Positions 3,110 to 43,701 of a stretch of DNA of 43,701 bases are shown here, piece by piece. Every line of letters starts with the position of its first letter. The stretch's first letter is position 1. Where the stretch lies: contig JALTLI010000139.1 of NCBI GenBank assembly GCA_027005635.1, positions 1-43,701 of the forward strand, read 5' to 3'. The stretch is from Alphaproteobacteria bacterium. GTDB lineage: Bacteria; Pseudomonadota; Alphaproteobacteria; UBA2136; JALTLI01. The position numbers and the translations under genes are program-made. The notes beneath the pieces are model-generated. The model was not told where the DNA came from and made no database searches. It saw only the letters and a list, made by a program, of their open reading frames with translations.

Positions 3110-4483
3110 TTAAGATGTTGAAAATTGAAAAACAGAACCACTACTTGAGCTAACAGTATAAAATTCTGTTCCATTATTCTTAAAAAATAAACCTTGTACT
3201 GTAGTTTCTTGTGCTGATATATCAAAAGAATCTAATAATGATGCTGTAGTAATATCCCATGCAGTTGTTAGCTTATAATGATATATGGTATCTGTATTTT
3301 GATTACAAACAAACATCTTAAACCCATCATTTCTAAAATATATATCTGATATGCCATTTATTACTGTAAATGAATCCCCGCTATAAGATGCTGTAGTAAT
3401 ATCCCATGCAGTTGCTAAATCATATTTAAAAATTTTAGTACCATTATCTGTTACAAACATTTCAAGCCCGTTAGGGTTAAATGAAATGCCTGTGGGGATA
3501 CCTGTTTCAGTAGATACACTAAATGAATTGCCACTATAAGATGCTGTAGTAATATCCCATGCAGTTGTTAAACTATATTCATATATTGAATCATTTACTG
3601 AACCTACAGTAAAAAATGTCAAACCATCATTTTTAAAATATAATCCTAAATTTACTGTATCTTGTACTGATAAATTTAACGAATTACTACTGTAGAATGC
3701 TGTACTAACATCCCATGCATTAGTTAAATTATATTCATAAACTGTTACTGTTCCGGTTACAAACATTTTAAGTCCATCAGGTGAAAATGAAATCCCCCTT
3801 GAATCTGCTAATTCAGCCGATATATCTTTAAAAACATTATTATATACTGAGTTTACTAATCGCCATGCATTGGGTATATAACTTAATTTAACACCCACAA
3901 CATCTGATAATAGATCTAATTCAGTTAATAATAAAATCTCATTAGAATTTAATTCTCTATCAAATGATAGTTGTATTTCATTTTCTGTAGAATTTATTAT
4001 TTCTAATGTATATACATGATCTATATTTAATAATGCCTTTGATGCTGAAACAATATCTTCCATTATACCGGAAGCAGAATTTTTTATTATTTTTGTTTTT
4101 ATAACTGCCCTGTATTGTGTATCGTCCAACAATGTATTACCTGTTTCATTGCTACCTTCACCACGGAAAATGCCCCCTACTGATGGATCATTAATATCAC
4201 CAAAAGAACCAACATTTACCCCCACAACACCAGCAAAACCAAAAAAAGTAAATCCACTTGCCAAAACTAATGGCCTCGGTATCCCTACAATTTTACCGAT
4301 AATATTAAGCTGTTCCCCTACTGCTGTATCAATACTTCTATTATTTAATAAATTATTAAAAACTTGATCCAATTCATCAGATCCTTTTAATAATGTTCTA
4401 ATATAATTTATTAAATTTGTAGATTCTTTAAATTGTGTGGCTAATCTACTTTCCGCAAGATCACCATGATTTATTAAACTCAT
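3110..4483 (-). CDS. Baseplate wedge/tail-fibre-attachment protein (P2 gpI / Mu gp48 position) fused to a 5-repeat beta-propeller-like domain
   Basis: Follows the J-like gene with a 4-nt overlap. The C-terminal ~250 aa consist of five 48-52-aa repeats '(T/N)AWD(I/V)(T/S)TA..S......GI.F..(D/N)G..MFV....IY.Y.L'. Confidence 0.6.
   Translation of the reverse strand: MSLINHGDLAESRLATQFKESTNLINYIRTLLKGSDELDQVFNNLLNNRSIDTAVGEQLNIIGKIVGIPRPLVLASGFTFFGFAGVVGVNVGSFGDINDPSVGGIFRGEGSNETGNTLLDDTQYRAVIKTKIIKNSASGIMEDIVSASKALLNIDHVYTLEIINSTENEIQLSFDRELNSNEILLLTELDLLSDVVGVKLSYIPNAWRLVNSVYNNVFKDISAELADSRGISFSPDGLKMFVTGTVTVYEYNLTNAWDVSTAFYSSNSLNLSVQDTVNLGLYFKNDGLTFFTVGSVNDSIYEYSLTTAWDITTASYSGNSFSVSTETGIPTGISFNPNGLEMFVTDNGTKIFKYDLATAWDITTASYSGDSFTVINGISDIYFRNDGFKMFVCNQNTDTIYHYKLTTAWDITTASLLDSFDISAQETTVQGLFFKNNGTEFYTVSSSSGSVFQFSTS
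3113..3871 (-). repeat. Five tandem coding repeats (147-153 nt) inside the gpI-like gene
   Basis: A 28-nt block gatgctgtagtaatatcccatgcagttg is perfectly repeated at 3240-3267, 3387-3414 and 3540-3567. Two more diverged copies flank these. Confidence 0.85.
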
Positions 4484-22012: not shown

Positions 22013-22094
22013 TCAGGATAGCCTTTTATTATCAAGTACATATATGGTAGCAGGGAATAACTGTATATACCACATATAGGGGGGTTCAGGTGCT

Positions 22095-22121
22095 AATATA
22101 CCATTTCGTTCTAATTGTCAA
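22095..22121 (-). promoter_or_regulatory. Candidate late-arm promoter (TTGACA-N15-TATATT, or N17-TATTAG)
   Basis: Minus strand reads cccTTGACAattagaacgaaatggTATATTag, about 85-110 nt upstream of the terS ATG. The leader contains the palindrome GTATATAC (22063-22070). Confidence 0.4.
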
Positions 22122-22186
22122 GGGTTCGGAAAATACCTTTTTAAATCTGACTCTATAAAAATATGCAATTTAAAGAAAAGTGATAT

Positions 22187-22284
22187 GTTCCGTACTGTTC
22201 CTTACTCATATCCGTACTATTTTTGCTAAGTTATTGATTTTATTAAGGGGTAGATCCGAACTATCCTTATTATCCTTATTTTTT
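22187..22284. repeat. Left arm of a ~100-nt modular inverted repeat carrying TCCTTA/TCCGTA iterons
   Basis: Perfect blocks at 22196-22208, 22225-22242 and 22262-22280 are reverse complements of 22453-22465, 22430-22447 and 22392-22410. Confidence 0.9.
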
Positions 22285-22387
22285 CATTTCTATAGGAAAA
22301 AACCATTTTGTGGGGTGGGATTTTGCCTTTAAATTGCTTTAATTTTCAAAAAATACCCCTAAAAATCTACTTTTTCCCACTGAACTT

Positions 22388-22489
22388 AAAAAATAAGGAT
22401 AATAAGGATAATAAGGATATAGGTACTTATAAAATCAATAACTTAGCTACTTTGAGTAAGGAACAAGTAAGGATACAGTAAGGAACAGA
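22388..22489. repeat. Right arm of the inverted repeat: 3x AATAAGGAT (9-nt period) plus 3x GTAAGGA(A/T)ACA (11-nt period)
   Basis: aaTAAGGAtaaTAAGGAtaaTAAGGAtat ... gagTAAGGAacaagTAAGGAtacagTAAGGAacag, read directly. Confidence 0.9.
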
Positions 22490-22593
22490 CACATAAAATT
22501 AAAACACACCACCACCATTATATAAATCATATACTTACATTAAATTTAGTGCTATAGTTACGCTTCTTTACTCCTATTTAAAGGTTTTTTAGC

Positions 22594-23878: not shown

Positions 23879-26239
23879 ATGAAGAAAGTAATAATTTCAT
23901 TAGGTCAATCTGTTTATAGAAACAGAATTAAGCAGCAGGAAATATCTGTAAAGGATTTATTTAGGAAATTATCTTTACCTGATATTAGGACTGAAAAAGA
24001 TGGTGCTTATTTTATATTTGCATCATTCACGAAAAATATTAGAAATGCTGTTAATGTAGATAAATATTATGGGGCTACTATTGATCTGGATAATACCCCA
24101 CTCGCTATATCTGAAGTACAGGAACTATTTAAAAAATATTTATACTGCATCCACACTACCCACAGCCACAAAGCCCCCGGAAAAGGTGTTAGATACCGGC
24201 TAGTATTGCCCTATCGTACCCCGCAAAGCCCTGAACGCCATGTAAACACATTATTACATATCATTAATATGTTAGGTATGGATAATGTAGATCTGTCCAG
24301 TAAGGCTTTATCCCGGCCTATGTATCTTCCGGCCTGTCCTAAAAAACGTGAAAAATATTTTAAATTTGTAGCTAATGAAAAAGGGCGGCCATTTAATCCT
24401 GACAGAATAAAACTTGATCCATCATTACAGTGGGAACTTGAGCAAAATAATTTACCGGGGCAGGTTGAACCTTTAGATATAAATAAGGAAATTTCCGAAG
24501 GGGAAAGAAATGAATCAATAGCCCGGCTTGTCGGTAAATTTATCCATAATGGAATGGATTTAGGTTTAATAGAACAATCTGCTATTGTGTGGAATGCTAC
24601 TAACTGTGTGCCCCCATTATCTGATAAAGATGTAAAAACCATTGTAAAATCGGTTTATAAAGCCCATAAAAGAAACAGCAAAGATACAGGGTGGGGATAT
24701 GATGAATTAGTAAGGCGGGTTAAAGAGAGCAAAGAACCTAAGCGGGATTATGACTTACTTATTAATCTTATATCTGGTTCACATGAAAAATTAAAGCAAT
24801 CACAGATTGAATTATTAATCCGGTTATTAAGACAAAAAACGGAAATCCCATTAAACTTAATCCGAAGTGAACTTTCAGCAGCAATAGCAGAAAAGAAAGG
24901 CATTAAGGAAGAAGAAGAAGAACTAAACACACAGAAATCTATTAAAGATCTTAAAAAGGAATTTACTGATTGGGTATATTTACGCAAAGACGATAAAATG
25001 TACAACTCAGTAAATGGGCTTGTATATAAAGTGGAAGGTTTTAATAGAATGCATAGCTCAATGATTGAAAAAGGGGCAATGCATTCTTTATTATTAAAAT
25101 TTAAGTCAGTTAAACAGGCTGATATGCTTCAGTTCAACCCATCAGAAGAACGGGTATTTAAAACAGATCACATTATATATGCTAATACCTATGTCCCACC
25201 TGAATTATTTCCAATGCCGGGAAATGTACGGCCAATGCTAAAACATTTTAAATATCTGATACCGGATGAAAGAGAAAGAAATATTATTTTAGATTTTATG
25301 GCTTTTATCATCCAGAAGCCCGGTGAAAAAATTAGATGGATGCCTGTTATAAAAGGAAGTAAAGGTATTGGTAAATCTATTATTGCTGAATTGATTTTAG
25401 CCCCATTAATCGGCATGAGTAATTTTAAACCTGTAGATTCAAAAGCAGTAAGACGGGATTTTAATAGCTGGCAGTTAGATGCACAGATAGTATGTTTTCA
25501 TGAATTAAAAATAGGTGAGACACGAAAAGAGAAAAAAGCCCTTACTGATTCACTGAAATCATTTATTGCCGATCCTACTATTCAGGCACACAGAAAAGGG
25601 CTTGATGAATATACCGTATTAAATAAGTCCAATGTTCTAGGCTTTACCAATCACGAAGATGCAATAATGATAACCCCTGATGAAAGGCGTTTCTGTATGA
25701 TTCGTTCTGAAGTTATGCCCAAATCAATTAATTATTATAACCGGCTAACAGACTGGTTAAAATCTCATAAAGAAGAAATGCTTTATTATTTCACTGAACG
25801 GGATATAAGCTGCTTCAATTATTCTACAGCACCCGAAACCGAATACACTAAAGAGATTAAAGATAGTAGCCAAATGTGGCCTACATCTATTCTTGTGGAT
25901 GCCTTGGGGGATGATCAGCACCCATTTAATACTGTAGGAGCTATGACTTGGGAAGGCATTGTAAACTTTATCCGATCTGAATCAGTAGGTAAGGATATGA
26001 TGGTAGCGGATAACCTGATTAAAGCCACATCATCACAAGGATATTTATTAATCAATGCTTTGCGGGAAATGGGCTTTAGGAAATTCAACGTAGGGAACAC
26101 TGATAGGGTGAGAATTAATAATAAACTCCATAGGGTATGGGTAGCTCCAAGGTCTGTTAGAGAGTTCAGTAAGTTATCATCTAATACAGTTGCTAAACTG
26201 CTGAAGCATGAAAAACAAATTTATGATTTTGATGAATAA
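23879..26239 (+). CDS. DNA primase / SF3 (D5/P4-alpha-like) replicative helicase
   Basis: 786 aa. N-terminal primase-like region ('IHTTHSHKAPGKGVRYRLVLPY'), a PriCT-like helix ('GERNESIARLVGKFIHNG...PPLSDKDVKTIVKSV'), Walker A 'GSKGIGKS' and Walker B-like 'IVCFHEL'. Confidence 0.8.
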   Translation: MKKVIISLGQSVYRNRIKQQEISVKDLFRKLSLPDIRTEKDGAYFIFASFTKNIRNAVNVDKYYGATIDLDNTPLAISEVQELFKKYLYCIHTTHSHKAPGKGVRYRLVLPYRTPQSPERHVNTLLHIINMLGMDNVDLSSKALSRPMYLPACPKKREKYFKFVANEKGRPFNPDRIKLDPSLQWELEQNNLPGQVEPLDINKEISEGERNESIARLVGKFIHNGMDLGLIEQSAIVWNATNCVPPLSDKDVKTIVKSVYKAHKRNSKDTGWGYDELVRRVKESKEPKRDYDLLINLISGSHEKLKQSQIELLIRLLRQKTEIPLNLIRSELSAAIAEKKGIKEEEEELNTQKSIKDLKKEFTDWVYLRKDDKMYNSVNGLVYKVEGFNRMHSSMIEKGAMHSLLLKFKSVKQADMLQFNPSEERVFKTDHIIYANTYVPPELFPMPGNVRPMLKHFKYLIPDERERNIILDFMAFIIQKPGEKIRWMPVIKGSKGIGKSIIAELILAPLIGMSNFKPVDSKAVRRDFNSWQLDAQIVCFHELKIGETRKEKKALTDSLKSFIADPTIQAHRKGLDEYTVLNKSNVLGFTNHEDAIMITPDERRFCMIRSEVMPKSINYYNRLTDWLKSHKEEMLYYFTERDISCFNYSTAPETEYTKEIKDSSQMWPTSILVDALGDDQHPFNTVGAMTWEGIVNFIRSESVGKDMMVADNLIKATSSQGYLLINALREMGFRKFNVGNTDRVRINNKLHRVWVAPRSVREFSKLSSNTVAKLLKHEKQIYDFDE

Positions 26240-26244
26240 ATAAA

Positions 26245-26382
26245 ATGATTGATTGTAAATATTTAAAAAATCGGCTGTGTACACATCAAAAAGTAAGACA
26301 TTTTAAAAGTGAACACTTTAAAAGGTGTCTACCTAATATATACCCCCATGTTAAATGTTTATATAAAGAGAAAAAGAAATGA
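26245..26382 (+). CDS. Unannotated 45-aa Cys/His-rich (zinc-finger-like) ORF, ATGA-coupled to the HsdM-like gene
   Basis: MIDCKYLKNRLCTHQKVRHFKSEHFKRCLPNIYPHVKCLYKEKKK. Its TGA (26380-82) overlaps the ATG at 26379. Confidence 0.4.
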   Translation: MIDCKYLKNRLCTHQKVRHFKSEHFKRCLPNIYPHVKCLYKEKKK

Positions 26383-27083
26383 TTAACCATAAAAAAGAAT
26401 TTATAAAACTGTTTAACAGTACAGCCCATAATCTTAACAGGTTTGAAGTGTTTTCTGATTTTGTAAAAATGTCAGCTATTGCCATATATAACGCCATTGC
26501 AAAAAATGAAGAACTGGAAAAAGAATATTTAGAAATTGTAGGGAAATATAAAAAGGAAGATGTGGATAATATAGTTAAATTATTTAGTCATGTGGTGATG
26601 GGGCTAGAAGCTGAATTTTGTGATTTTTTAGGTGATGTATTCATGGAATCTGAATTAGGTTCTAATAGAATGGGGCAATTTTTTACCCCCTATCATTTAT
26701 CTAAAATATGCTCGGATCTTACTTATTCTGATGATATAAAAAAATCAAAAGACAAAGAGTTCATAACTGTCCATGAGCCTGCCTGTGGTGCTGGTGGAAT
26801 GGTTATTGCTTTTGCTAATACAATGCTTGACAATGATATAAACTATCAGCAGAAACTATTTGTGAGCTGTATAGATAAGGATTATGTGGCGGCTTATATG
26901 TGCTTCATTCAATTATCACTTTTAAATATCCCGGCTGAAGTGATTATAGGAAATGCCCTGAACATGGATATTCAAAAAGTATTCAGAACCCCAGCTTATT
27001 ATTTAGGTAACTGGGAATATAAATTAAATGCCCCACAGAAACAAAAGATAAAAACAAAGATTATTTTAGAATATAACCCTTGA
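26379..27083 (+). CDS. HsdM/N6-adenine-methyltransferase-like SAM-binding protein lacking the catalytic (N/D/S)PP(Y/F/W) motif
   Basis: Motif X 'GQFFTPYHL', motif I 'EPACGAGGM', 'CIDKD' and 'IIGNAL' are present. The protein ends ~35 aa later and has no PP dipeptide anywhere. Confidence 0.6.
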   Translation: MINHKKEFIKLFNSTAHNLNRFEVFSDFVKMSAIAIYNAIAKNEELEKEYLEIVGKYKKEDVDNIVKLFSHVVMGLEAEFCDFLGDVFMESELGSNRMGQFFTPYHLSKICSDLTYSDDIKKSKDKEFITVHEPACGAGGMVIAFANTMLDNDINYQQKLFVSCIDKDYVAAYMCFIQLSLLNIPAEVIIGNALNMDIQKVFRTPAYYLGNWEYKLNAPQKQKIKTKIILEYNP

Positions 27084-27108
27084 CATATCTTAGCCCCTAA
27101 TATATTAT
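27080..27108 (+). promoter_or_regulatory. Cassette promoter P1 (TTGACA-N17-TATTAT), spacer core CTTAGCCCCTAAT
   Basis: The stop codon of the upstream ORF (27081-83) lies inside the -35. No ORF occurs before P2. Confidence 0.6.
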
Positions 27109-27130
27109 ACATACATGGGCTGCGGGGTTA

Positions 27131-27153
27131 TCCGATAATCCACCCCTGCATGA
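27131..27153. repeat. GC-rich 23-mer TCCGATAATCCACCCCTGCATGA, inverted partner at 29591-29613
   Basis: The reverse complement of 29591-29613 is tcggataatccgcccctgcatga, matching at 21/23 positions. Confidence 0.85.
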
Positions 27154-27198
27154 CTATAAACCATATAAAATTAATTTTAATTATTTTAATAAAATCCC

Positions 27199-27227
27199 TT
27201 GACTTATGTTAGCCCCTAATATATACT
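27199..27227 (+). promoter_or_regulatory. Cassette promoter P2 (TTGACT-N17-TATACT)
   Basis: ttgacttatgttagcccctaatatatact. The ATG of the next ORF is 39 nt downstream. Confidence 0.75.
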
Positions 27228-27272
27228 TGTATCCAAGTTAAACATAAATACATAGGAACAAGGCTATGAAAA
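27199..27272 (+). repeat. 74-nt perfect direct repeat (promoter + leader + ATGAAAA), copy 1
   Basis: Identical to 29912-29985. Confidence 0.95.
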
Positions 27273-27475
27273 CAGAAACAGTAAAAGCAAGTAATATAAA
27301 CCACGGTGACACAATTATCATTAACGGTAAAGAGTTTACTGTAAACGGTGAATATATAAAAAACGGTTTTTTCGGTACTACCATTCATGGCCATAATATC
27401 AAGGGCAGTGTAGAACGTGTTTTATTCCCCAAATGGTATAAAGGAAAAATTGTAAAATATGTTCCCCAAATTTAA
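27266..27475 (+). CDS. Hypothetical cassette protein (69 aa)
   Basis: ORF track. Has its own promoter, P2. Confidence 0.6.
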   Translation: MKTETVKASNINHGDTIIINGKEFTVNGEYIKNGFFGTTIHGHNIKGSVERVLFPKWYKGKIVKYVPQI

Positions 27476-27494
27476 AATAAATTAAGATTAGGGG

Positions 27495-27523
27495 TTGACA
27501 TAAGTTAGCCCCTAACATATACT
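27495..27523 (+). promoter_or_regulatory. Cassette promoter P3 (TTGACA-N17-TATACT), core GTTAGCCCCTAAC
   Basis: Preceded by TTAGGGG (27488-94), which is complementary to CCCCTAA (27509-15) in the spacer. Confidence 0.75.
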
Positions 27524-27558
27524 TATCACACCTTAAACAAACACAGAGAGAAAAGGTA

Positions 27559-27936
27559 ATGATTAATTTAACATATTTCATTTCAAAGCAACAAACAAAA
27601 GTGATTAAATCACTGATTAAAGGTGAAGAAGGCAAGTTTTTTGCTGATAAACTGATTCAATTACAGCACATTATTGAAACCATGCCAAAATCCTATGAAC
27701 AGGATGGTAAAGGGGATGAAGCTGTAGCATATCTCCACTACTTCAAAGGTGGGTATGATTTTTATATTACTGAAAGGGATATTGAAAAAGAACAACATCA
27801 GGCTTTTGGTTTAGTTTCAGGCCATGAAATAGAAATGGGCTATATTTCAATAGTAGAATTATTGGCTAATAATGTAGAAATAGATCTGCATTTTGAACCT
27901 ACTACCTTAAAGGAAATAAGAAAAAATTTAAAATAA
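27559..27936 (+). CDS. DUF2958-like protein (family common on conjugative plasmids/ICEs)
   Basis: 'YEQDGKGDEAVAYLHYFKGGYDFYITERD...AFGLVSGHEIEMGYISIVELL...VEIDLHFEPTTLKEI' matches my recollection of the DUF2958 signature. Confidence 0.5.
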   Translation: MINLTYFISKQQTKVIKSLIKGEEGKFFADKLIQLQHIIETMPKSYEQDGKGDEAVAYLHYFKGGYDFYITERDIEKEQHQAFGLVSGHEIEMGYISIVELLANNVEIDLHFEPTTLKEIRKNLK

Positions 27937-27950
27937 ATTAAAATTAGGGG

Positions 27951-27979
27951 TTGACTTATGTTAGCCCCTAATATATACT
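27951..27979 (+). promoter_or_regulatory. Cassette promoter P4 (TTGACT-N17-TATACT)
   Basis: The same upstream tttaaaataaattaaRattagggg as P3. TTAGGGG at 27944-50 is complementary to 27965-71. Confidence 0.75.
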
Positions 27980-28017
27980 TATCTCAAGTTAAATAAATAC
28001 AGAGAGAGATTAAAGCC

Positions 28018-28239
28018 ATGACTAAACAAATCAAAGTAATTATGAAAGACACACTGAACAATGACAAAGAAATTACTCGTGACATTGATATTAGTAATTT
28101 CTATATAAATGGTGGTTCTTCATGGGTGGTTTCTTCTGATGTTGAACGTCAAAGAAAGATGCTTTTAGATTGGATTGAAGAGCGTGCTAATGAACAACAT
28201 AATACACTTTTAGAATTAAAAGCATGGTATATTTTTTAA
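28018..28239 (+). CDS. Hypothetical cassette protein (73 aa)
   Basis: ORF track. Has its own promoter, P4. Confidence 0.6.
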   Translation: MTKQIKVIMKDTLNNDKEITRDIDISNFYINGGSSWVVSSDVERQRKMLLDWIEERANEQHNTLLELKAWYIF

Positions 28240-28257
28240 AATCAATTTTAAAAAGCC

Positions 28258-28286
28258 CTTGACATAAGTTAGGGGCTAACATATAC
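28258..28286 (+). promoter_or_regulatory. Cassette promoter P5 (TTGACA-N17-TATACT) with the 13-mer core inverted (GTTAGGGGCTAAC)
   Basis: Colinear with P3 for ~60 nt except for the flipped core. Upstream AGCCC (28253-57) is complementary to GGGCT (28272-76). Confidence 0.75.
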
Positions 28287-28323
28287 TGATCACACCTTAA
28301 ACAAAAAGAGAGAGAAAAATATC

Positions 28324-29181
28324 ATGACTTATTTCCGTGAAATGACACATGCCCACAATGTTGAATTAACTAATGAAGCAATGCTTCAAAACGCCCCTTC
28401 TGTATTCGCTGAACAACCATTTAATGAAGTATCTAGCAAGTATGGCTTTGTTCCTACTATTAACGTGATTGAAGGCTTACGGGCTGAAGGCTGGCTTCCT
28501 GTGGATGCTACTCAAAAGAATGTAAGGAATAAGGATAAAACGGATTTTACTAAACATCTGATCCGCTTCAGACGTTTAAATGATGATATTAAAGTAGGTG
28601 ATTCTGCTGTAGAACTGCTGCTAACAAACAGCCATGATAGAAGTTCAGCCTTTGTTCTTCATGCTGGTATCTTCCGTATGGCCTGTGCTAATGGCATTGT
28701 AATCGCTGATAGCACATTTAATAAGGTATCTGTACGCCATAATCAAAACGCCCTTGAAGATGTTATAGAAGGCTCTTATCAGGTACTTGAAGAAGTTCCC
28801 TTAATTACCAATGAAGTAGAAGCTATGCAAGAGGTGATCTTAAACCGGGAAGAACAGAAAATTTTTGCCGGGGCTGCTTTGGATTACATGCTACCTGAAC
28901 CCAAAGAAGGGGAAGCTAAAATAGTTACTTCCAAGGATGCATTAATAGGCCAAATCCTACACCCTAAGCGTTCTGCTGATACTGGCAGTGATTTATGGTC
29001 TACCTATAATGTAGTGCAAGAAAAAGCCTTACGGGGTGGCCTGATCAGTCATAAAATGGATGCTAAAGGCCGATATAGAAGAAACACCACACGGGCTGTA
29101 AAGAGCATTGATAAAAACGTAAAGCTGAACAAGGCTTTATGGGAAATGGCTGTGAAAATGAAGGAATTAAAAGCAGCTTAA
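28324..29181 (+). CDS. DUF932-like protein (phage/plasmid/ICE family of unknown function)
   Basis: 'ELLLTNSHDRSSAFVLHAGIFRMACANGIV' matches the DUF932 core (NSHDGS...G.FR..C.NG). Confidence 0.65.
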   Translation: MTYFREMTHAHNVELTNEAMLQNAPSVFAEQPFNEVSSKYGFVPTINVIEGLRAEGWLPVDATQKNVRNKDKTDFTKHLIRFRRLNDDIKVGDSAVELLLTNSHDRSSAFVLHAGIFRMACANGIVIADSTFNKVSVRHNQNALEDVIEGSYQVLEEVPLITNEVEAMQEVILNREEQKIFAGAALDYMLPEPKEGEAKIVTSKDALIGQILHPKRSADTGSDLWSTYNVVQEKALRGGLISHKMDAKGRYRRNTTRAVKSIDKNVKLNKALWEMAVKMKELKAA

Positions 29182-29189
29182 TTTTAACG

Positions 29190-29210
29190 GGGCAAGGATG
29201 CCCTTAATTT
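29190..29210 (+). terminator. Short hairpin terminator candidate
   Basis: GGGCA-agga-TGCCC followed by ttaattt. Confidence 0.35.
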
Positions 29211-29223
29211 AGGAATATAAAAA

Positions 29224-29508
29224 ATGAATATTTTTGGTAAAATAAATAATGAGAAAGCAAGAAAACAACTTAATTTACCACATGACTATGAAATATTTAT
29301 AATGGCTACGGAAATTGATTATTTAAAAGATGATTTTAGCTATAAAGTACATGATTTGTATAGTGAAATAGGATATTTATCTAGTGATGATGTAAATTCA
29401 ATATTTAAAGAAATAAACATAAGCATAAAACTACCACAAAACTATATATTAGTTGGCATGATTAATAAAAATAATAATTCTGAAGTTTATGGGATAATAG
29501 AAGTATGA
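29224..29508 (+). CDS. Hypothetical protein (94 aa, very AT-rich)
   Basis: ORF track. Confidence 0.55.
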   Translation: MNIFGKINNEKARKQLNLPHDYEIFIMATEIDYLKDDFSYKVHDLYSEIGYLSSDDVNSIFKEINISIKLPQNYILVGMINKNNNSEVYGIIEV

Positions 29509-29588
29509 GTATTGAACAACTTACCCCTGAAGAACTGGTTTTATTAATATTGGCATTTATTGTAGGGGCAATAATCGCTAGAATTTAA
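29505..29588 (+). CDS. Unannotated 27-aa hydrophobic peptide (ATGA-coupled)
   Basis: MSIEQLTPEELVLLILAFIVGAIIARI. Its ATG overlaps the TGA of the upstream ORF. Confidence 0.3.
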   Translation: MSIEQLTPEELVLLILAFIVGAIIARI

Positions 29589-29590
29589 TA

Positions 29591-29613
29591 TCATGCAGGG
29601 GCGGATTATCCGA
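29591..29613. repeat. Inverted partner of the 27131-27153 GC-rich 23-mer
   Basis: tcatgcaggggcggattatccga. Confidence 0.85.
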
Positions 29614-29629
29614 CTATCCCGGCTGATGT

Positions 29630-29658
29630 AAGTATTATATGTTAGCCCCTAATATAAT
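29630..29658 (+). promoter_or_regulatory. Degenerate cassette promoter P6 (core GTTAGCCCCTAA plus TATAAT, no TTGAC -35)
   Basis: aagtattatatgttagcccctaatataat. The ATG of 29691 is 33 nt downstream. Confidence 0.4.
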
Positions 29659-29690
29659 GCAAGTAATATTTTGAATAAAAGGTAAATAAA

Positions 29691-29915
29691 ATGACTGAAA
29701 TTATAAACAACACCCGCCACCCTTTAACATTTCATCATGAAAATAAAGAAGGTGAAATAGAAATAACTATCCTTCCTTTTGATTCTGGTGAAATACCAGA
29801 TAATCTATGGAAGAAATTCAAGAAAAATAAAACAGTAAAAGAAAAATTGGAAAATAAAAGTTTAGTAGTAAGAGAAAAACAAAATTTTTTTAAAAAATTG
29901 TTTAAATTTAGTTGA
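29691..29915 (+). CDS. Early paralog (74 aa) of the capsid-adjacent gene 14673..14987
   Basis: See the alignment given for 14673..14987. Its stop codon lies inside the -35 of P7. Confidence 0.6.
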   Translation: MTEIINNTRHPLTFHHENKEGEIEITILPFDSGEIPDNLWKKFKKNKTVKEKLENKSLVVREKQNFFKKLFKFS

Positions 29916-29940
29916 CTTATGTTAGCCCCTAATATATACT
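29912..29940 (+). promoter_or_regulatory. Cassette promoter P7 (TTGACT-N17-TATACT)
   Basis: Identical to P2. Confidence 0.75.
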
Positions 29941-29985
29941 TGTATCCAAGTTAAACATAAATACATAGGAACAAGGCTATGAAAA
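29912..29985 (+). repeat. 74-nt perfect direct repeat, copy 2
   Basis: Identical to 27199-27272. Confidence 0.95.
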
Positions 29986-30134
29986 ATATTGAAATAACAG
30001 CAGCACAAAAACAGCTTTTAGATAGCATATTTGAAGTTAATGCTAAAAGGATTGATCAGCTTATAGTCAGATCTTTTAGATCTACCGGAAAAGAGCCACA
30101 TGTTTACGGAACTGAATACCAATATAAGGGGTAA
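29979..30134 (+). CDS. Unannotated 51-aa ORF driven by P7
   Basis: MKNIEITAAQKQLLDSIFEVNAKRIDQLIVRSFRSTGKEPHVYGTEYQYKG. It has the same leader, RBS and start as 27266. Below the track cut-off. Confidence 0.55.
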   Translation: MKNIEITAAQKQLLDSIFEVNAKRIDQLIVRSFRSTGKEPHVYGTEYQYKG

Positions 30135-30138
30135 TGAA

Positions 30139-30360
30139 ATGTACAGCAAAAACAGAAAAATGAAAAAAGTTGAAGTGGATGATCTTGTAGTAGTAAATGA
30201 TCTTCCTGATACCACTGTTTATATGGTTTGTTCAGTAGAGAATGGGCAGGCTGAATTAGAATATGAATCAGGCTATAAAAAAATTAATGCAGGTAAAATG
30301 CCAGTAGAATTATTATTAAAACCCACGAAAGAACAGCTTAAAAATAGTGGGCTAAATTAA
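30139..30360 (+). CDS. Hypothetical protein (73 aa; start moved from 30100)
   Basis: The internal ATG at 30139 follows AAGGGG and the stop of the 51-aa ORF. The track start would overlap that ORF by 35 nt. Confidence 0.55.
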   Translation: MYSKNRKMKKVEVDDLVVVNDLPDTTVYMVCSVENGQAELEYESGYKKINAGKMPVELLLKPTKEQLKNSGLN

Positions 30361-30396
30361 CTGGGAATGATCCCATAATATAAAAGGTGATAAATT

Positions 30397-30591
30397 ATGT
30401 TTAAAATTCAGTGTAGTAAAAAATCAACAGGTGGTAAGGCTTTTGTATCCAATCATCCTACCGGATCTGAATCAGTTCAGTTTACAGATAATGAAAGTCA
30501 AGCCTACATATTTAGTGATATGGCACAATGTAAAAATATCCGTGATGATATTCTTCAATATGCTGATAATGTAACAATTCTGAAAATCTAG
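30397..30591 (+). CDS. Hypothetical protein (64 aa)
   Basis: ORF track. RBS aaaaggtga. Confidence 0.5.
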   Translation: MFKIQCSKKSTGGKAFVSNHPTGSESVQFTDNESQAYIFSDMAQCKNIRDDILQYADNVTILKI

Positions 30592-30635
30592 GAAGGCTGG
30601 TAGGCATGGATGCCATTTTATGAAGGTAACAATTA

Positions 30636-30807: not shown

Positions 30808-31527
30808 ATGAATACAGAAAAAGTAGATTGGATTAAATTATCAAATGATCCAGAAATAAGAAAATTAGCAAAGGAATTATGTGAAAAGCATGGATTCAAT
30901 GCTGATAGTTTAGTTTTTGGCTCCACACCCTATCCTGATTCAGATCAAAAAGTAAAAGATGTGGATCAATATTACTACAGGTGGCGTGAATATGTAGTGG
31001 ATGCTGTGACCATTTCACAAAAAAATAGAAATAAATGTGAACATGGACTACCTATAGATGATCACTGTGCATTATGTGAAAGGGGTTTTGATATGGCTAT
31101 GGATGGGGAATGTAAACATGGAACACCAGAAAATGTATTTTGTAACCAGTGTGAATCCGAATATCAGGAACACAAAACAGAATCAGATCCATCAGGCAAA
31201 GCACAGCATGAACCCGGTGCTAAATTAGATGCTGGAAAGATAAGGCCGGGCTTAGTGCTTGGGGGCTTTGCAAGGGCATTATGGGCAGTCTGTGAGGTAG
31301 GTACTAAAGGTGCTGCCAAATATTCAGATAACGGCTGGATGGAAGTGGAAACAGGAAAAGAAAGATATACTGATGCAGGTTTACGCCACTTTCTAAAGTC
31401 TGCTATGGGTGAAGATATAGATCCAGATTTTGACCTGTTACACATGGCACATGAAGCATGGAACAGCCTAGCAAAGCTGGAATTGAAATTAAGAGAAATT
31501 GAAGCTAAGAATGCTGATCAGCAATAG
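30808..31527 (+). CDS. Fusion protein: N-domain + two CxHG-x8/9-CxxCE zinc knuckles + DUF5664-like (dNTP-pyrophosphohydrolase-associated) C-domain
   Basis: 'KCEHGLPIDDHCALCERG' and 'ECKHGTPENVFCNQCESE' are tandem. The C-terminal 'DAGKIRPGLV...GAAKYSDNGW...AGLRHFLKSAMGEDIDPDFDLLHMAHEAWN' fits the DUF5664 pattern as I recall it. Confidence 0.5.
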   Translation: MNTEKVDWIKLSNDPEIRKLAKELCEKHGFNADSLVFGSTPYPDSDQKVKDVDQYYYRWREYVVDAVTISQKNRNKCEHGLPIDDHCALCERGFDMAMDGECKHGTPENVFCNQCESEYQEHKTESDPSGKAQHEPGAKLDAGKIRPGLVLGGFARALWAVCEVGTKGAAKYSDNGWMEVETGKERYTDAGLRHFLKSAMGEDIDPDFDLLHMAHEAWNSLAKLELKLREIEAKNADQQ

Positions 31528-31678
31528 CTTTAAACCATGCTGACACAGTAAGGCCACAGGCTTTAGCAGCTTGTTTATAACGCTTTTTCTGGTCTACTGT
31601 AACCCTGAAGCCGGGAATCAGTTCAGACGCTTTAAGGCTTGCGGGCAATGGGGGTCTACCCCGTTTATTTTTACTCAT
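31505..31678 (-). CDS. Unannotated 57-aa ribbon-helix-helix (CopG/Arc/MobC-like) regulator on the opposite strand, apparently leaderless
   Basis: MSKNKRGRPPLPASLKASELIPGFRVTVDQKKRYKQAAKACGLTVSAWFKAIADQHS (basic arm, beta strand FRVTV, two helices). The local GC is clearly higher than in the flanks. A perfect TATAAT ends 8 nt before the ATG. Confidence 0.6.
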   Translation of the reverse strand: MSKNKRGRPPLPASLKASELIPGFRVTVDQKKRYKQAAKACGLTVSAWFKAIADQHS

Positions 31679-32600: not shown

Positions 32601-33122
32601 ATGGCTAAGATTACGATTGAATTTGATGATGAAATTATGGCTGGCTTTCTTGATCAGGTAGCAGAACAGGCGGCAAGTTCAGCCACAACCACTACAGATA
32701 AAAAACCTGCTGGCAAAAAAGAAGATAAAGAACCGGCTTCTGAAGAAACATTTAATGCTGAAAGCATTAAAGAAATGTGTAATAAATTGCTGGATCTGAC
32801 AGATAAAGCAAAAGTGAAAGAAGTGCTTTCTGAATTTAACTGTACCACTGTTTCAAAAGCTACAAAGCTGGAAGGTGATGATCTTCAGGATTGTGGTGAA
32901 GCATTACAAGAAGCCATTGCTGAAGCTGAATCTGGTGGTTCTGGTGAAGATGATGAAGTAACTGTGGAAGCCGTAAAAGTTGCTGTTCAGGCATTCAGTA
33001 AGAAAAACGGAAAAGATGATACAAAAGAAATCCTTGAAGATTTTGGTATCAACTCTGTGCGCGGCCTGAACAAACTTTCTCAAGAAGATCTTGAAGAACT
33101 GTATGCTGAGGTCTGTGAATAA
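32601..33122 (+). CDS. Acidic protein with two copies of the module also found at the SSB C-terminus
   Basis: 173 aa. 'ESIKEMCNKLLDLTDKAKVKEVLSEFNCTTVSKATKLEGDDLQDCGEALQEAI' aligns to the C-end of 34643..35413. Confidence 0.6.
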   Translation: MAKITIEFDDEIMAGFLDQVAEQAASSATTTTDKKPAGKKEDKEPASEETFNAESIKEMCNKLLDLTDKAKVKEVLSEFNCTTVSKATKLEGDDLQDCGEALQEAIAEAESGGSGEDDEVTVEAVKVAVQAFSKKNGKDDTKEILEDFGINSVRGLNKLSQEDLEELYAEVCE

Positions 33123-33260: not shown

Positions 33261-34565
33261 ATGGCTAAACATCATTCTCTAGGTGGATCAAATACCTACA
33301 CATGGCTTAACTGCCCCGGCTCCCGAAAATCCATTGAAGCGGCAATAGAAGCCGGACTAATACCAGAAGAAAGCCCCGGAAATAAATACACAGAAGAAGG
33401 CACTGTAGCCCATGCTTTAGGTGAAATATGTTTAGATATGGGGCTTGATCCAAATGATTTTTATAATAAAACAATCCCTTCAGTTATCGGTAAAAAACGC
33501 ACAGCAAAATATTTAAACAAATCTGAATTAGAACACATAGATTTAACTAAAGAATTAATGACTTCTGAATATATAGAAGCCGTGGAAATCTATGTTAATT
33601 ATATCCGTGAACAGCATTCAATAATGGAAGGTTCTACACTTCTTTTAGAAGAAAGCTATTCTTTAGAAAATTATGTAAATGATGATTGTGGTGGTAGTGC
33701 TGATGCTTCTATTTTAGGTGTGAAGGGATTATTAGAAGTGGCTGATTATAAACATGGAAAAGGGGTAGTAGTAGAAGCCCCCGGAAATCCACAAACTAGG
33801 CTCTATGGTTTAGGGGCAATATTAAAACACAATGATGAATATAATTTTAAAGAAGTAAAATTAACAATAATTCAACCCCGTGTTTTTCATACTGATGGTG
33901 CTATCAGAAGTGAATCCCTATCTGTAAAAGAACTATTGAAATGGGGTAGAACTGTAGTAAAGCCAGCCGTTAAATTATTAAATTCTGATAACCCTGAATT
34001 AATTCCCGGTGAAAAACAGTGTATGTGGTGTAGGGTGAACGGGATCTGTAAAGCCAATGCTGAACAAGCCTTGATGGTAGCACAAAAAGAATTTTCTGAT
34101 ATTGCCCTCCCCGATGATGTATTAGCTGAACCCCAAACACTTACAATAGAAGAAGCAAATTTAATTGTCTCAAATAAAAAAAGAATTGAAAAATGGCTTA
34201 ATGCAGTTCAGGCTTATGTGGAAACTGCTGTAGAATCGGGTTCAGTTGAATTACCGGATTTTAAATTAGTTGAACGTATTTCAAACAGGCAATATAAAAA
34301 TGAAAAATCTATTGTCAGAAGATTAAAGCGGCTGCATCCCGAATTAAATCCTTATGATGAACCAAAAATAAAAAGCCCGGCACAAATGGAATCTTATTTA
34401 AAAGCTGAATATGGATATAAACCAAAAGAAGCTAAAGCCCTTGTAGATAAATTTTGTGAACGTGTAAAAATTGGTATTGCACTTGCCCCTATTACTGATG
34501 GAAGAAAAGCTATTGAGCCACCCATCAAAACAGAATTTGCTGAATTTGTTGATAATGACAAATAA
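33261..34565 (+). CDS. PD-(D/E)XK Cas4/RecB-like exonuclease (DUF2800-like)
   Basis: 'LGGSNTYTWLNCPGS', 'EGTVAH', 'ADYKHGKGVVVEA', 'NPQTRLYGLGA' and the Cys cluster 'CMWCRVNGIC'. Confidence 0.7.
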   Translation: MAKHHSLGGSNTYTWLNCPGSRKSIEAAIEAGLIPEESPGNKYTEEGTVAHALGEICLDMGLDPNDFYNKTIPSVIGKKRTAKYLNKSELEHIDLTKELMTSEYIEAVEIYVNYIREQHSIMEGSTLLLEESYSLENYVNDDCGGSADASILGVKGLLEVADYKHGKGVVVEAPGNPQTRLYGLGAILKHNDEYNFKEVKLTIIQPRVFHTDGAIRSESLSVKELLKWGRTVVKPAVKLLNSDNPELIPGEKQCMWCRVNGICKANAEQALMVAQKEFSDIALPDDVLAEPQTLTIEEANLIVSNKKRIEKWLNAVQAYVETAVESGSVELPDFKLVERISNRQYKNEKSIVRRLKRLHPELNPYDEPKIKSPAQMESYLKAEYGYKPKEAKALVDKFCERVKIGIALAPITDGRKAIEPPIKTEFAEFVDNDK

Positions 34566-34642: not shown

Positions 34643-35413
34643 ATGACTACTAAAAAAGATCCCACCCGTGTAGTAACAGGTGTATGCCGTTCGTCATTCA
34701 TGTTTGTGAATCAATTAGAAGCTGATGATAATGGTAATAAAAAATGCCGGACTCAAATCATTATTAAGAAAAGTGATAAGGCTACTATTGCCAAACTGGA
34801 TAAAGCTATTAATGCTGCTAGTATGAAAAAGTTCGGTAAAAAAGCGGCTAAAAATTCCCGTTCTTTTGGCTACCCATTGCGTGATGCTGATAAAGAAATA
34901 AAAGATGGTACTTTTGAACCAGCAGATCCAAAGGTTTATAAAAACTGTTATTTCATGAACACTACAGCCTATAAGCTGCCCGGCCTTGTTGATCAGGATA
35001 ATGAACTAATTGAAGATCCTGATGAACGTGCTGAAATGGCTGTATCAGGTTTCTATTTCCGGTTCTCTGTTACTATGAAGGGTTATGATAAAGATGGTAA
35101 TAAGGGTGTCCGGGCTGAACTGAATAATATGATGTTTATCAAAGAAGGTGAACGCCTTGATGGTGGTGTAGCTGCTGATTCTGAAGATTGGGGTGATAGT
35201 GGCGATCAAGATCCTGATGATGAAAACGATTCAGATAATGATTATTCCCCTGAAAAAATTAAAGAACTCTGTGCCGAATTGAAAGAAGAAGATGCTGAAG
35301 CCCTTGATGAAATTCTGGAAGAATTTGATTGCAAGAATGCACGGGCGGCATCAAAACTTGATGATGATGAACGCGCTGAAATTGGTGAAGCATTGGAAGA
35401 TGCTTTAGATTAA
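34643..35413 (+). CDS. Single-stranded DNA-binding protein (DUF2815 / T7 gp2.5-like) with an acidic C-terminal module
   Basis: 'RVVTGVCRSSFMFVNQ', 'GYPLRDADKE', 'SGFYFRFSVTMKGYD..GNKGVRAELNNMMF' followed by an Asp/Glu-rich tail. Synteny with the exonuclease and polymerase. Confidence 0.65.
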   Translation: MTTKKDPTRVVTGVCRSSFMFVNQLEADDNGNKKCRTQIIIKKSDKATIAKLDKAINAASMKKFGKKAAKNSRSFGYPLRDADKEIKDGTFEPADPKVYKNCYFMNTTAYKLPGLVDQDNELIEDPDERAEMAVSGFYFRFSVTMKGYDKDGNKGVRAELNNMMFIKEGERLDGGVAADSEDWGDSGDQDPDDENDSDNDYSPEKIKELCAELKEEDAEALDEILEEFDCKNARAASKLDDDERAEIGEALEDALD

Positions 35414-43293: not shown

Positions 43294-43701
43294 TTACCAT
43301 ACCCGTAAATTACTGATTCTGATATTTGAATCAGCATTACCACCAAAATAAAAATATGATCCACCATAAAATCTATTTGTAGCAATAATCACAGGTTCCA
43401 TTGAACCAATTTTTACAGATATATTTTCCCTATTATCCGATATAACTACCGGTGTTTTTGTTGTTCCAAGTTCGCCACCTGCTACTGTATCTATTAATGT
43501 ATTATTAATAACATCATTTCCCTTATCATCAGTTTCAATTTCACGAACACGCACATATACATCTGGTGATGTATCACGAATACGAATCTCAATTAATTTT
43601 GAAACAGCAATTTCACCATAATAATTACCATCATTTCGTATGCCAATAAATAACGCTTTTCCCGCTGTAGCAAATGTTAAATCAAATGCTATTGTATTTC
43701 C
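43294..43701 (-). CDS. 3' part of the wrap-around CDS (joins 1..349)
   Basis: The frame of ORF 43294..43554 stays open upstream to the window end. The track's 'M' at 43554 is a GTG Val codon inside the longer gene. Confidence 0.7.
   Translation of the reverse strand, partial: GNTIAFDLTFATAGKALFIGIRNDGNYYGEIAVSKLIEIRIRDTSPDVYVRVREIETDDKGNDVINNTLIDTVAGGELGTTKTPVVISDNRENISVKIGSMEPVIIATNRFYGGSYFYFGGNADSNIRISNLRVW
43575..43701. repeat. Second copy of the 127-nt end repeat
   Basis: Identical to nt 1-127. Confidence 0.95.

Follow-up and report, generated by a model that had tools for sequence, protein, structure and literature searches.

A probable hypervariable slot of PeSL-like cassettes, with cargo resembling that of conjugative leading regions, in a small uncultured myovirus

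To our knowledge, T4-like phages are the only setting in which the mobile regulatory cassettes called PeSLs (promoter-early stem-loops) have been described. In the hyperplastic regions of these phages, orphan genes are flanked by strong sigma-70 promoters, each with a polyG/polyC stem-loop lying on or between its two boxes, and homologous recombination at these elements gives rise to indels and mini-circles (Arbiol et al. 2010, PMC2839356; Comeau et al. 2014, PMC4122927). One-directional arrays of small, individually promoted, early-type genes also characterise the leading regions of conjugative plasmids, whose third-largest gene family, YubP (UPF0380/YafZ, PF06067; 4661 members, false discovery rate p of 0), is listed as uncharacterised and has a median position of 1 from the origin of transfer, oriT (Samuel et al. 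2024, PMC11541004, Suppl. 3). A further described system comprises polyvalent proteins, used in conflicts by phages and conjugative elements alike, among which the ArdC and N6A methylase domains form hubs (Iyer et al. 2017, PMC5512222). Here, we compare these systems with an island of small open reading frames (ORFs) at 26245-30600 of contig JALTLI010000139.1 (assembly GCA_027005635.1, deposited as an Alphaproteobacteria bacterium); the whole stretch analysed, 43,701 nt, is called the window. The island splits the replication genes of a phage genome, lying between a primase-helicase gene that ends at 26239 and the rest of the replication genes from ~32.6 kb, with the flanks that an initial annotation of this DNA had given.

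We propose that the region is a hypervariable accessory slot of PeSL-like cassettes at a fixed site 3' of the primase-helicase gene, whose leading-region-type cargo would aid entry, and we put the probability of this reading at roughly 0.6. Its parts differ in strength. That the region is a hyperplastic slot with PeSL-like cassettes is very probable on the comparisons below, and the likeness of its cargo to conjugative leading-region cargo is supported. That at least one island gene acts against host defence, with an HsdM-like protein as the strongest case, is a reasonable suggestion to which we give slightly less than even odds.

The main new result is the architecture of the island, namely repeated promoter/stem-loop cassettes, which were absent from the initial annotation. 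Six plus-strand copies and one minus-strand copy of a single sigma-70-type promoter, TTGACWTAWGTTAG[CCC/GGG]CTAAYATATACT, occur in the island only, all within 27077-29985, and most of them carry a G4/C4 stem-loop across the -35 box and a conserved leader. Five ORFs (69, 125, 73, 285, and 51 aa) each have an exact TTGAC-N18-TATACT site directly upstream, while the sixth copy precedes a non-coding element and the seventh is inverted on the minus strand. The exact site has five matches against 1.12 expected, and the embedded palindrome GTTAGSSSCTAAY has 13 strand-matches against 0.55 expected, all at 27089-29933. Generic sigma-70-like sites, by contrast, stand at chance level (70 vs 65.7 expected), and the promoter signal is therefore the repeated near-identical element and not promoter density. 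The earlier claim that most ORFs here have their own strong promoter was thus overstated, given that it holds for five ORFs, while the repetition of an exact site is real; the remaining island ORFs, lacking their own copy, are predicted to be co-transcribed neighbours.

The promoter is embedded as the core in an 84-105-nt repeat (families D1, D3, and D6), whose first part is an AT-rich tract. A GGGG run usually comes next, then the -35 box TTGAC(A/T), a four-base spacer, the motif GTTAG-CCCC-TAAC, and the -10 box. The last part is a conserved leader, which extends ~30 nt from the likely start site up to a Shine-Dalgarno sequence and ATG. The promoter form TTGAC(A/T)-N17-TATACT or TATAAT is found in six window copies and in ~20 copies from related genomes, and 26 copies from five genomes align without gaps (alignment A4). 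The stem GGGGTTGAC-N4-GTTAGCCCC, in which GGGGTTGAC pairs with GTTAGCCCC, is present in 16 of the 26. Folded as RNA, the copy at 27495 forms a 12-bp hairpin (-17.8 kcal/mol, z -5.35), and the copy at 28259, which reads GCCC...GGGC, retains its helix because the changes compensate each other (-15.7 kcal/mol, z -4.47). No hairpin is formed by a copy lacking the upstream G-run (-5 kcal/mol). Across the alignment, 79% of the cells of the 9-bp helix are paired, and both sides are changed at four pairs; only one of 500 shuffles attained the observed covariation score.

Comparison with relatives shows that the element marks a variable site. We recovered four related genomes (L028, L040, L043/L044, and L045), whose primases are 69-80% identical at the amino acid level to that of the window; counts over five genomes include the window. 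The promoter element had no exact match in IMG/VR, a scan of metagenomes gave 29 loci of which L028 was the only true relative, and a primase query in IMG/VR returned one relative that ends at the primase. In all four relatives, a series of small ORFs interrupts the backbone immediately behind the primase, and synteny resumes at a homologue of the 64-aa ORF at 30397-30591. The segment that varies among them corresponds to 26240 to ~30390, coinciding with the island limits, such that the comparison of island content proposed earlier reveals the same site with different genes. The promoter/stem-loop element precedes cassettes in every relative, within the equivalent island. L040 and L045, whose primase DNA is 93% identical, differ in entire cassettes, and each end of a collinear block (8452/9361, 9105/9286, 9536/9720, and 9468/9922) falls inside an element. 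The element thus exists, is confined to the island, is common to five genomes, and is where cassette-sized indels break.

The cargo itself is heterogeneous. Most cassettes are lineage-unique orphans in the five-genome family table, and the HsdM-like gene is present in the window only. In L028, the slot is occupied by ~17 unrelated ORFs, among which are one for a peptide deformylase (E 2.4e-32) and one that is OMP-like; in L040, it includes a GIY-YIG endonuclease. Since a relative carries a peptide deformylase there, the slot is a general cargo space. These observations, together with the lack of any match to a known anti-defence family, would suit a generic ORFan or moron slot in which any small gene is tolerated and shuffled, the plasmid-type families having arrived by chance transfer without a common function. 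We consider this unlikely, given that the gene for a DUF932 protein is retained in four of the five genomes at 83-85% identity (L040, L043, and L045), above that of the primase, that all three recognisable families come from one gene pool, that of plasmid entry regions, and that pairs of the three recur together in unrelated elements. Between the window and L043 (6446-7303), DUF932 is 83% identical, compared with 69% for the primase and 71% each for the DUF2800 nuclease and the single-stranded DNA-binding protein (SSB). DUF932 is thus more conserved than the replication genes, which suggests either stronger constraint or a recent cassette exchange.

An exact 74-nt direct repeat (27199-27272 and 29912-29985) lies within two of the window elements, its copies being 2713 bp apart. 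The 2713-bp unit carries the 69-aa ORF, the DUF2958-like gene, the 73-aa ORF, DUF932, and the 94-, 27-, and 74-aa ORFs. A Logan contig of 2697 bp (SRR10312491; L002) corresponds to window positions 27243-29939, with both ends inside the 74-nt repeat copies. We considered it as an excised circle and rejected this in favour of an assembly break at the repeat, because assemblers stop at repeats longer than the k-mer.

Two further features of the element family are noted here. A GC-rich non-coding stretch, GATAATCC(A/G)CCCCTGC, occurs twice in the window in inverted orientation (27077-27160 on the plus strand and 29584-29665 on the minus strand), bracketing the island core. We asked whether this GC-rich element, where it follows the 27080 promoter, might be a structured small RNA and discarded the idea, as it folds no better than shuffles (z 0.23, -1.85, and -1.10). 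Separately, the 27-aa hydrophobic ORF at 29505-29588, the one such peptide that we found where the initial annotation had several, is faced by the minus-strand promoter copy TTGCAT-N17-TATAAT (29662-29634), from which an antisense RNA is predicted; the layout resembles a type I toxin-antitoxin pair.

The window element shares with PeSLs its form as a ~100-nt repeated intergenic element with an AT-rich tract, a sigma-70-like promoter, a polyG/polyC stem-loop, and a 3' Shine-Dalgarno sequence, as well as its setting, i.e., it is confined to a hyperplastic region, flanks small orphan ORFs, and marks indel breakpoints between close relatives. In contrast, its sequence is unrelated to PeSLs, its stem covers the -35 box, and ~40% of its copies are stem-less. 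Its carrier, a 43.6-kb myovirus with a PolA/DUF2800/Enc34/PriCT gene set and sheath and baseplate genes, is likewise not T4-like (Tevenvirinae-type). By analogy, we suggest that the element works like a PeSL without being a member of the PeSL sequence family. Host RNA polymerase would read each cassette early and independently, the stem-loops would insulate adjacent cassettes against read-through, and homologous recombination between repeats would add, remove, or swap cassettes, as has been proposed for T4-like PeSLs. The exact 74-nt repeat could excise a 2.7-kb unit whose first gene is the 69-aa ORF and whose last is the 74-aa ORF, with the DUF2958-like and DUF932 genes in between. The cargo would be drawn from the leading-region gene pool, including DUF932/YubP, DUF2958, and a truncated HsdM-like domain that is predicted to bind S-adenosylmethionine (SAM).

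The HsdM-like protein named in the initial annotation is indeed present, in truncated form. It matches Pfam N6_Mtase (E 4.8e-10) at profile positions 22-128 of 311 only, phrog_5696 (E 2.5e-79), and phrog_23459 at positions 426-647 of 649. As in HsdM, the SAM-binding motifs X (GQFFTP), I (EPACGAGG), II (D-x-D; D166/D168), and III (GNAL; G191-N192) are kept, and they are invariant in alignment A1. The canonical motif IV of N6-adenine methylases is (D/N/S)PP(Y/F/W), with NPPF/Y as the HsdM version. In the window protein, motif IV is degenerate (T204-P205-A-Y-Y), and the chain ends 27 residues later without the catalytic C-terminal half (motifs V-VIII) and the HsdS-binding C-terminal helix; HsdM_N was not detected, and no hsdS or hsdR partner accompanies it. 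Stand-alone methyltransferase activity is unlikely because of the altered motif IV and the early end, as judged from the known fold. A search of PDB sequences with the family profile matched the motif X-I-II stretch only.

This truncation recurs throughout the family. The family comprises 1914 clusters at E<=1e-30; of the 150 top-ranked representatives, more than 140 measure 185-358 aa and share the truncation. Matches were found in 2191 plasmid records (1511 conjugative) vs 13 phage records. The closest homologues (53-57% identity) lie on conjugative plasmids near RadC, SSB, and ArdC. In Yersinia ruckeri pYR4, the gene adjoins the relaxase gene, with ArdA 1.7 kb ahead of it and a DUF932 pseudogene 3.2 kb beyond it, and on another plasmid (L010) it is 1.2 kb from ArdC. 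The truncated domain is also the C-terminal domain of three independent ~650-aa proteins (P0371, P0374, and P0379), whose N-terminal parts (ArdcN and the MPTase-PolyVal peptidase) constitute the anti-restriction protein ArdC; phrog_23459 is built alike. The window protein thus resembles the C-terminal portion of ArdC-type polyvalent proteins (PMC5512222), which follows ArdcN and MPTase and includes the TPxY ending. It differs in being a free-standing domain of 234 aa without the ArdC/peptidase part, and the window has no ArdC gene. The ArdC fusion and the neighbourhood together are the best functional lead in the island, and the most likely role of the protein would be interference with type I (SAM-dependent) restriction.

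The other two recognisable families are also predominantly plasmid-borne. The DUF932 protein identified in the initial annotation is full-length, matching PF06067 (E 1.6e-43; 149.5 bits vs a cut-off of 23) with residues 34-273 on profile positions 3-227 of 227, and its homologues occur in at least 5000 plasmid records (4235 of the top 5000 conjugative) vs 27 phage records. We found no characterisation of DUF932, DUF2958, or YubP function in the literature; one preprint reports phage-selected single nucleotide polymorphisms in a plasmid DUF932 gene. The DUF2958-like protein has no Pfam match at E<=1. We treat it as a borderline DUF2958 member because PF11171 is carried by 46 of 119 homologues among the matches listed (52-69% identity) despite the lack of a direct match; plasmid homologues are annotated as DUF2958, and the earlier label was fair in this borderline sense. 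Its matches comprise 136 plasmid records vs one phage record. That sole homologue among deposited phage genomes, in Xanthomonas phage Rb1 (PQ569993.1, 54504-54872; 54.5% identity), is annotated as an 'internal head protein', which, if the name is correct, would suggest a packaged, injected protein. On a Stenotrophomonas plasmid, no more than ~2.5 kb separates the DUF2958-like gene from a short HsdM-like gene, and in a mobilisable element a distant DUF2958 protein is encoded directly upstream of one (contexts L008 and L047); on an unrelated 43-kb contig, a DUF2958-like gene is <=2 kb from DUF932.

The resemblance to conjugative leading regions asserted in the initial annotation is therefore borne out at the level of gene families, because DUF932 is family 3 of the leading-region census (PMC11541004), the three families are overwhelmingly plasmid-borne, and ArdA and ArdC lie near HsdM-like homologues. 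Like the leading regions, the island is a one-directional array of small, individually promoted, early-type genes, and it shares with them DUF932/YubP, N6-methylase-like, and DUF2958 families whose plasmid homologues adjoin ArdA/ArdC. Unlike them, the window has no oriT, relaxase, or type IV secretion system (T4SS), and its promoters are ordinary double-strand sigma-70 sites with none of the Frpo-type single-strand promoters. The island also lacks ArdA, KlcA, PsiB, and hok/sok, and the only SSB of the window is an Enc34-type replication gene outside the island. One could suppose that the island is a block of plasmid or integrative and conjugative element (ICE) DNA, recently captured by a single illegitimate recombination, as the plasmid location of the closest HsdM-like homologues and a nearby NikA-like ribbon-helix-helix gene (31505-31678) might suggest. 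This we regard as very improbable, since the GC content of the island (0.29-0.37) is in line with that of the remaining genome, each gene comes with the promoter element of the phage lineage itself, relatives hold different subsets, no relaxase, oriT, T4SS, or partition genes are present, and identities to plasmid genes are only 39-57%. For the three families, the most likely role would be helping newly entered DNA establish itself.

Several observations weigh against our proposal. With regard to the element, 10 of the 26 copies (~40%) have no stem, the compensatory change rests essentially on one copy, and the hairpins have no U-tract and were not picked up by a terminator scan. With regard to the cargo, relatives use the same slot for a peptide deformylase and a GIY-YIG endonuclease, and scans of the island ORFs against Pfam, PHROGs, NCBIfam, and PADLOC found no known anti-defence or defence family. 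NCBIfam and PADLOC gave partial methylase matches only, and none of ArdA, KlcA/ArdB, ArdC, PsiB, or SSB was detected among the island ORFs in the four scans. An acidic DNA mimic like Ocr or ArdA was considered and rejected, as the net charges of the island proteins range from -5 to +10. Structural homology searches, which the initial annotation had proposed, were run for the DUF932 and DUF2958-like proteins using AlphaFold2 models (pLDDT 81.4 and 94.7, respectively). Foldseek against PDB found no solved analogue of either (best E 0.24 and 0.34, TM <0.35), the BFVD viral models matched only other uncharacterised DUF932/DUF945/TIGR03299 proteins, and a PDB sequence search with DUF932 gave no match. 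Finally, among 80 bacterial DUF932 loci, the HsdM-like and DUF2958 families were both absent within 8 kb. The earlier statement that DUF932, DUF2958, and methylases 'typically co-occur' was too strong because none of the 80 loci has either of the other two families within 8 kb, and we reject a systematic co-occurrence of the three in ICEs. The designation of the interval as a host-takeover and anti-defence island stands in part, i.e., as a discrete accessory island with leading-region-type cargo, while its functional half is not supported, in view of the absence of an anti-defence family match, a solved fold analogue, and an acidic mimic, and of the deformylase in the slot of a relative.

The neighbours of bacterial DUF932 genes also count against the proposal, being recombination/excision genes and not classical anti-restriction genes. 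In 38 of the 80 loci, ORFs flanking DUF932 most often encode a Gp3-like recombination directionality factor (8), the YqaJ exonuclease (7), or RadC (4), which fits an integrative-element context and leaves room for a DNA-processing role. DUF932, with or without DUF2958, might therefore act on incoming or replicating DNA, e.g., in recombination, end protection, or the conversion of single-stranded to double-stranded DNA, and not in immunity. Such a role would explain the position of the island inside the replication genes, between those for the primase and the DUF2800 nuclease, SSB, and PolA, and would suit the enzyme-like invariant motifs of DUF932 (NSHDR and RMACANG; alignment A2). We nonetheless consider this quite unlikely. 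DUF932 is missing from L028, whose replication genes match, and is therefore dispensable for replication; on plasmids it is nearest oriT among early-expressed leading genes (PMC11541004), and its fold has no nuclease or recombinase match.

Going beyond the PeSL-like slot with leading-region-type cargo, we put forward a more specific and doubtful idea. DUF932/YubP, DUF2958, and the HsdM-like domain might form an 'entry toolkit' of conjugative elements and phages for the first minutes after entry. The HsdM-like domain would disable type I restriction in the manner of a decoy without catalysis or of a SAM-binding partner, either by itself or with ArdC, and in this phage lineage the toolkit genes would be traded as self-contained promoter/stem-loop cassettes.

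The features of the island and its two anchors are collected in Table 1. The interval 26245-30600 holds 12 plus-strand ORFs of 27-285 aa, slightly fewer than the ~14 first counted, and the run of small ORFs is real, with ~7 more between this interval and 32.6 kb. Several are orphans, as was stated at the outset, in that the ORFs other than those discussed above have no characterised family.

Table 1 Features of the island and of its flanks in window coordinates (aa, amino acids; pI, isoelectric point; GRAVY, hydropathy index).
Feature	Positions	Strand	Remarks
Primase-helicase, left conserved anchor of the island	23879-26239	+	786-aa ORF; 69-80% aa identity in L028/L040/L043/L045, which carry PriCT_1/DUF5906
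45-aa ORF, basic, Cys/His-rich, pI 9.9	26245-26382	+	Stop overlaps start of next gene; 49% homologue at same site in L043 (family F9)
Truncated HsdM-like protein, 234 aa	26379-27083	+	Pfam N6_Mtase, PHROGs
Stem-less promoter copy, then conserved GC-rich non-coding element	27077-27160	+	Families D6, I4; copies in L040 (7815-7900) and L045 (8719-8800)
PeSL-like promoter and leader	27196-27272	+	D1; contains left 74-nt repeat copy
69-aa ORF	27266-27475	+	phrog_3623 (function unknown); window only among five genomes
PeSL-like element: AT-rich tract, 12-bp stem-loop over -35, TATACT, leader with Shine-Dalgarno	27468-27551	+	D3; hairpin -17.8 kcal/mol
DUF2958-like protein, 125 aa	27559-27936	+	phrog_5203; in 3/5 genomes
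PeSL-like element with G4/C4 stem-loop	27924-28007	+	D3
73-aa ORF, directly upstream of DUF932	28018-28239	+	In 2/5 genomes: 46% homologue at same position in L043 (F10)
PeSL-like element, stem GCCC...GGGC compensated	28232-28315	+	Hairpin -15.7 kcal/mol
DUF932/UPF0380 (YubP-YafZ family) protein, 285 aa	28324-29181	+	Pfam; phrog_12094
94-aa orphan, acidic	29224-29508	+	ORF without family match
27-aa hydrophobic peptide MSIEQLTPEELVLLILAFIVGAIIARI	29505-29588	+	Start overlaps stop of 94-aa ORF; GRAVY 1.57
Inverted promoter and GC-rich element, TTGCAT-N17-TATAAT	29584-29665	-	I4; points antisense into 27-aa ORF
74-aa orphan, basic	29691-29915	+	Weak phrog_14627 match, E 0.0035
PeSL-like promoter and leader	29909-29985	+	D1; contains right 74-nt repeat copy
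51-aa orphan	29979-30134	+	ORF without family match
73-aa orphan	30139-30360	+	86 aa from upstream ATG at 30100, with AAGGGG Shine-Dalgarno, the likelier start
64-aa ORF, first conserved anchor right of variable segment	30397-30591	+	Homologues in L028 (58%) and L043 (46%)
DUF2800 nuclease	33261-34565	+	Downstream flank; followed by Enc34-type SSB, PolA, thymidylate synthase, SNF2 helicase

The window is a complete genome of 43,574 bp, circular or terminally redundant, because positions 1-127 recur exactly at 43575-43701; its GC content is ~33%, and the sequence derives from a metagenome scaffold (ENA ERZ23495147). The minus strand encodes head protease, major head, tail sheath, tape measure, and baseplate proteins, and the phage is accordingly classed, from its gene content, as a small, uncultured myovirus. 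The plus-strand block at 22.6-40.3 kb encodes the primase-helicase, a DUF2800 PD-(D/E)XK nuclease, the Enc34-type SSB, PolA, thymidylate synthase, and an SNF2 helicase. A near-identity DNA search against 50,697 deposited phage genomes returned no close relative, the island had no match in cultured phages, a terminase query against bacterial genomes found no prophage relative, and Rfam and tRNA scans of the whole window gave no match.

Downstream of the island, three proteins may be mentioned. A 239-aa protein (30808-31527), present in the window only among the five related genomes, has a Cys-rich N-terminal half and a C-terminal PF18909 match (dATP/dGTP diphosphohydrolase N-terminal domain, E 2.6e-23). 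The 57-aa ribbon-helix-helix protein at 31505-31678 on the minus strand is NikA-like, just below the Pfam cut-off (26.5 vs 27 bits), and is conserved in L043/L044. A 173-aa protein (32601-33122) is very acidic, with a pI of 4.3 and a net charge of -22. It is paralogous to a portion of the Enc34-type SSB (34643-35413), with 39-40% identity to SSBs, and the pair is kept in L043. Elsewhere, the divergent intergenic region between the structural and early genes (22040-22590) contains a 77-nt imperfect inverted repeat (22225-22301 / 22371-22447, 81% complementary) and the iteron-like words TAAGGATAA (three times), GTAAGGAACA, and CCGTACTGTTCCTTACT, with similar words at the equivalent place in L003 and L028; it may be an origin or operator array. 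A 457-aa gene at 3110-4483, with PHROG matches to structural and baseplate proteins (phrog_587, E 1.1e-37), includes four copies of a ~150-nt repeat at 3215-3743.

In this 44-kb phage, DUF932/YubP is found as a single, dispensable cassette, predicted to be separately promoted, near an HsdM-like domain that is elsewhere fused to ArdC. If confirmed, a sequence-unrelated version of the PeSL in a small PolA-type myovirus would suggest a general way of building and reshuffling accessory slots. Should the entry-toolkit idea be true, PeSL-type shuffling would extend beyond T4-like phages and be linked to counter-defence, and the cassettes, if confirmed, would provide a compact, testable set of candidates for entry-phase and anti-restriction functions common to plasmids and phages.

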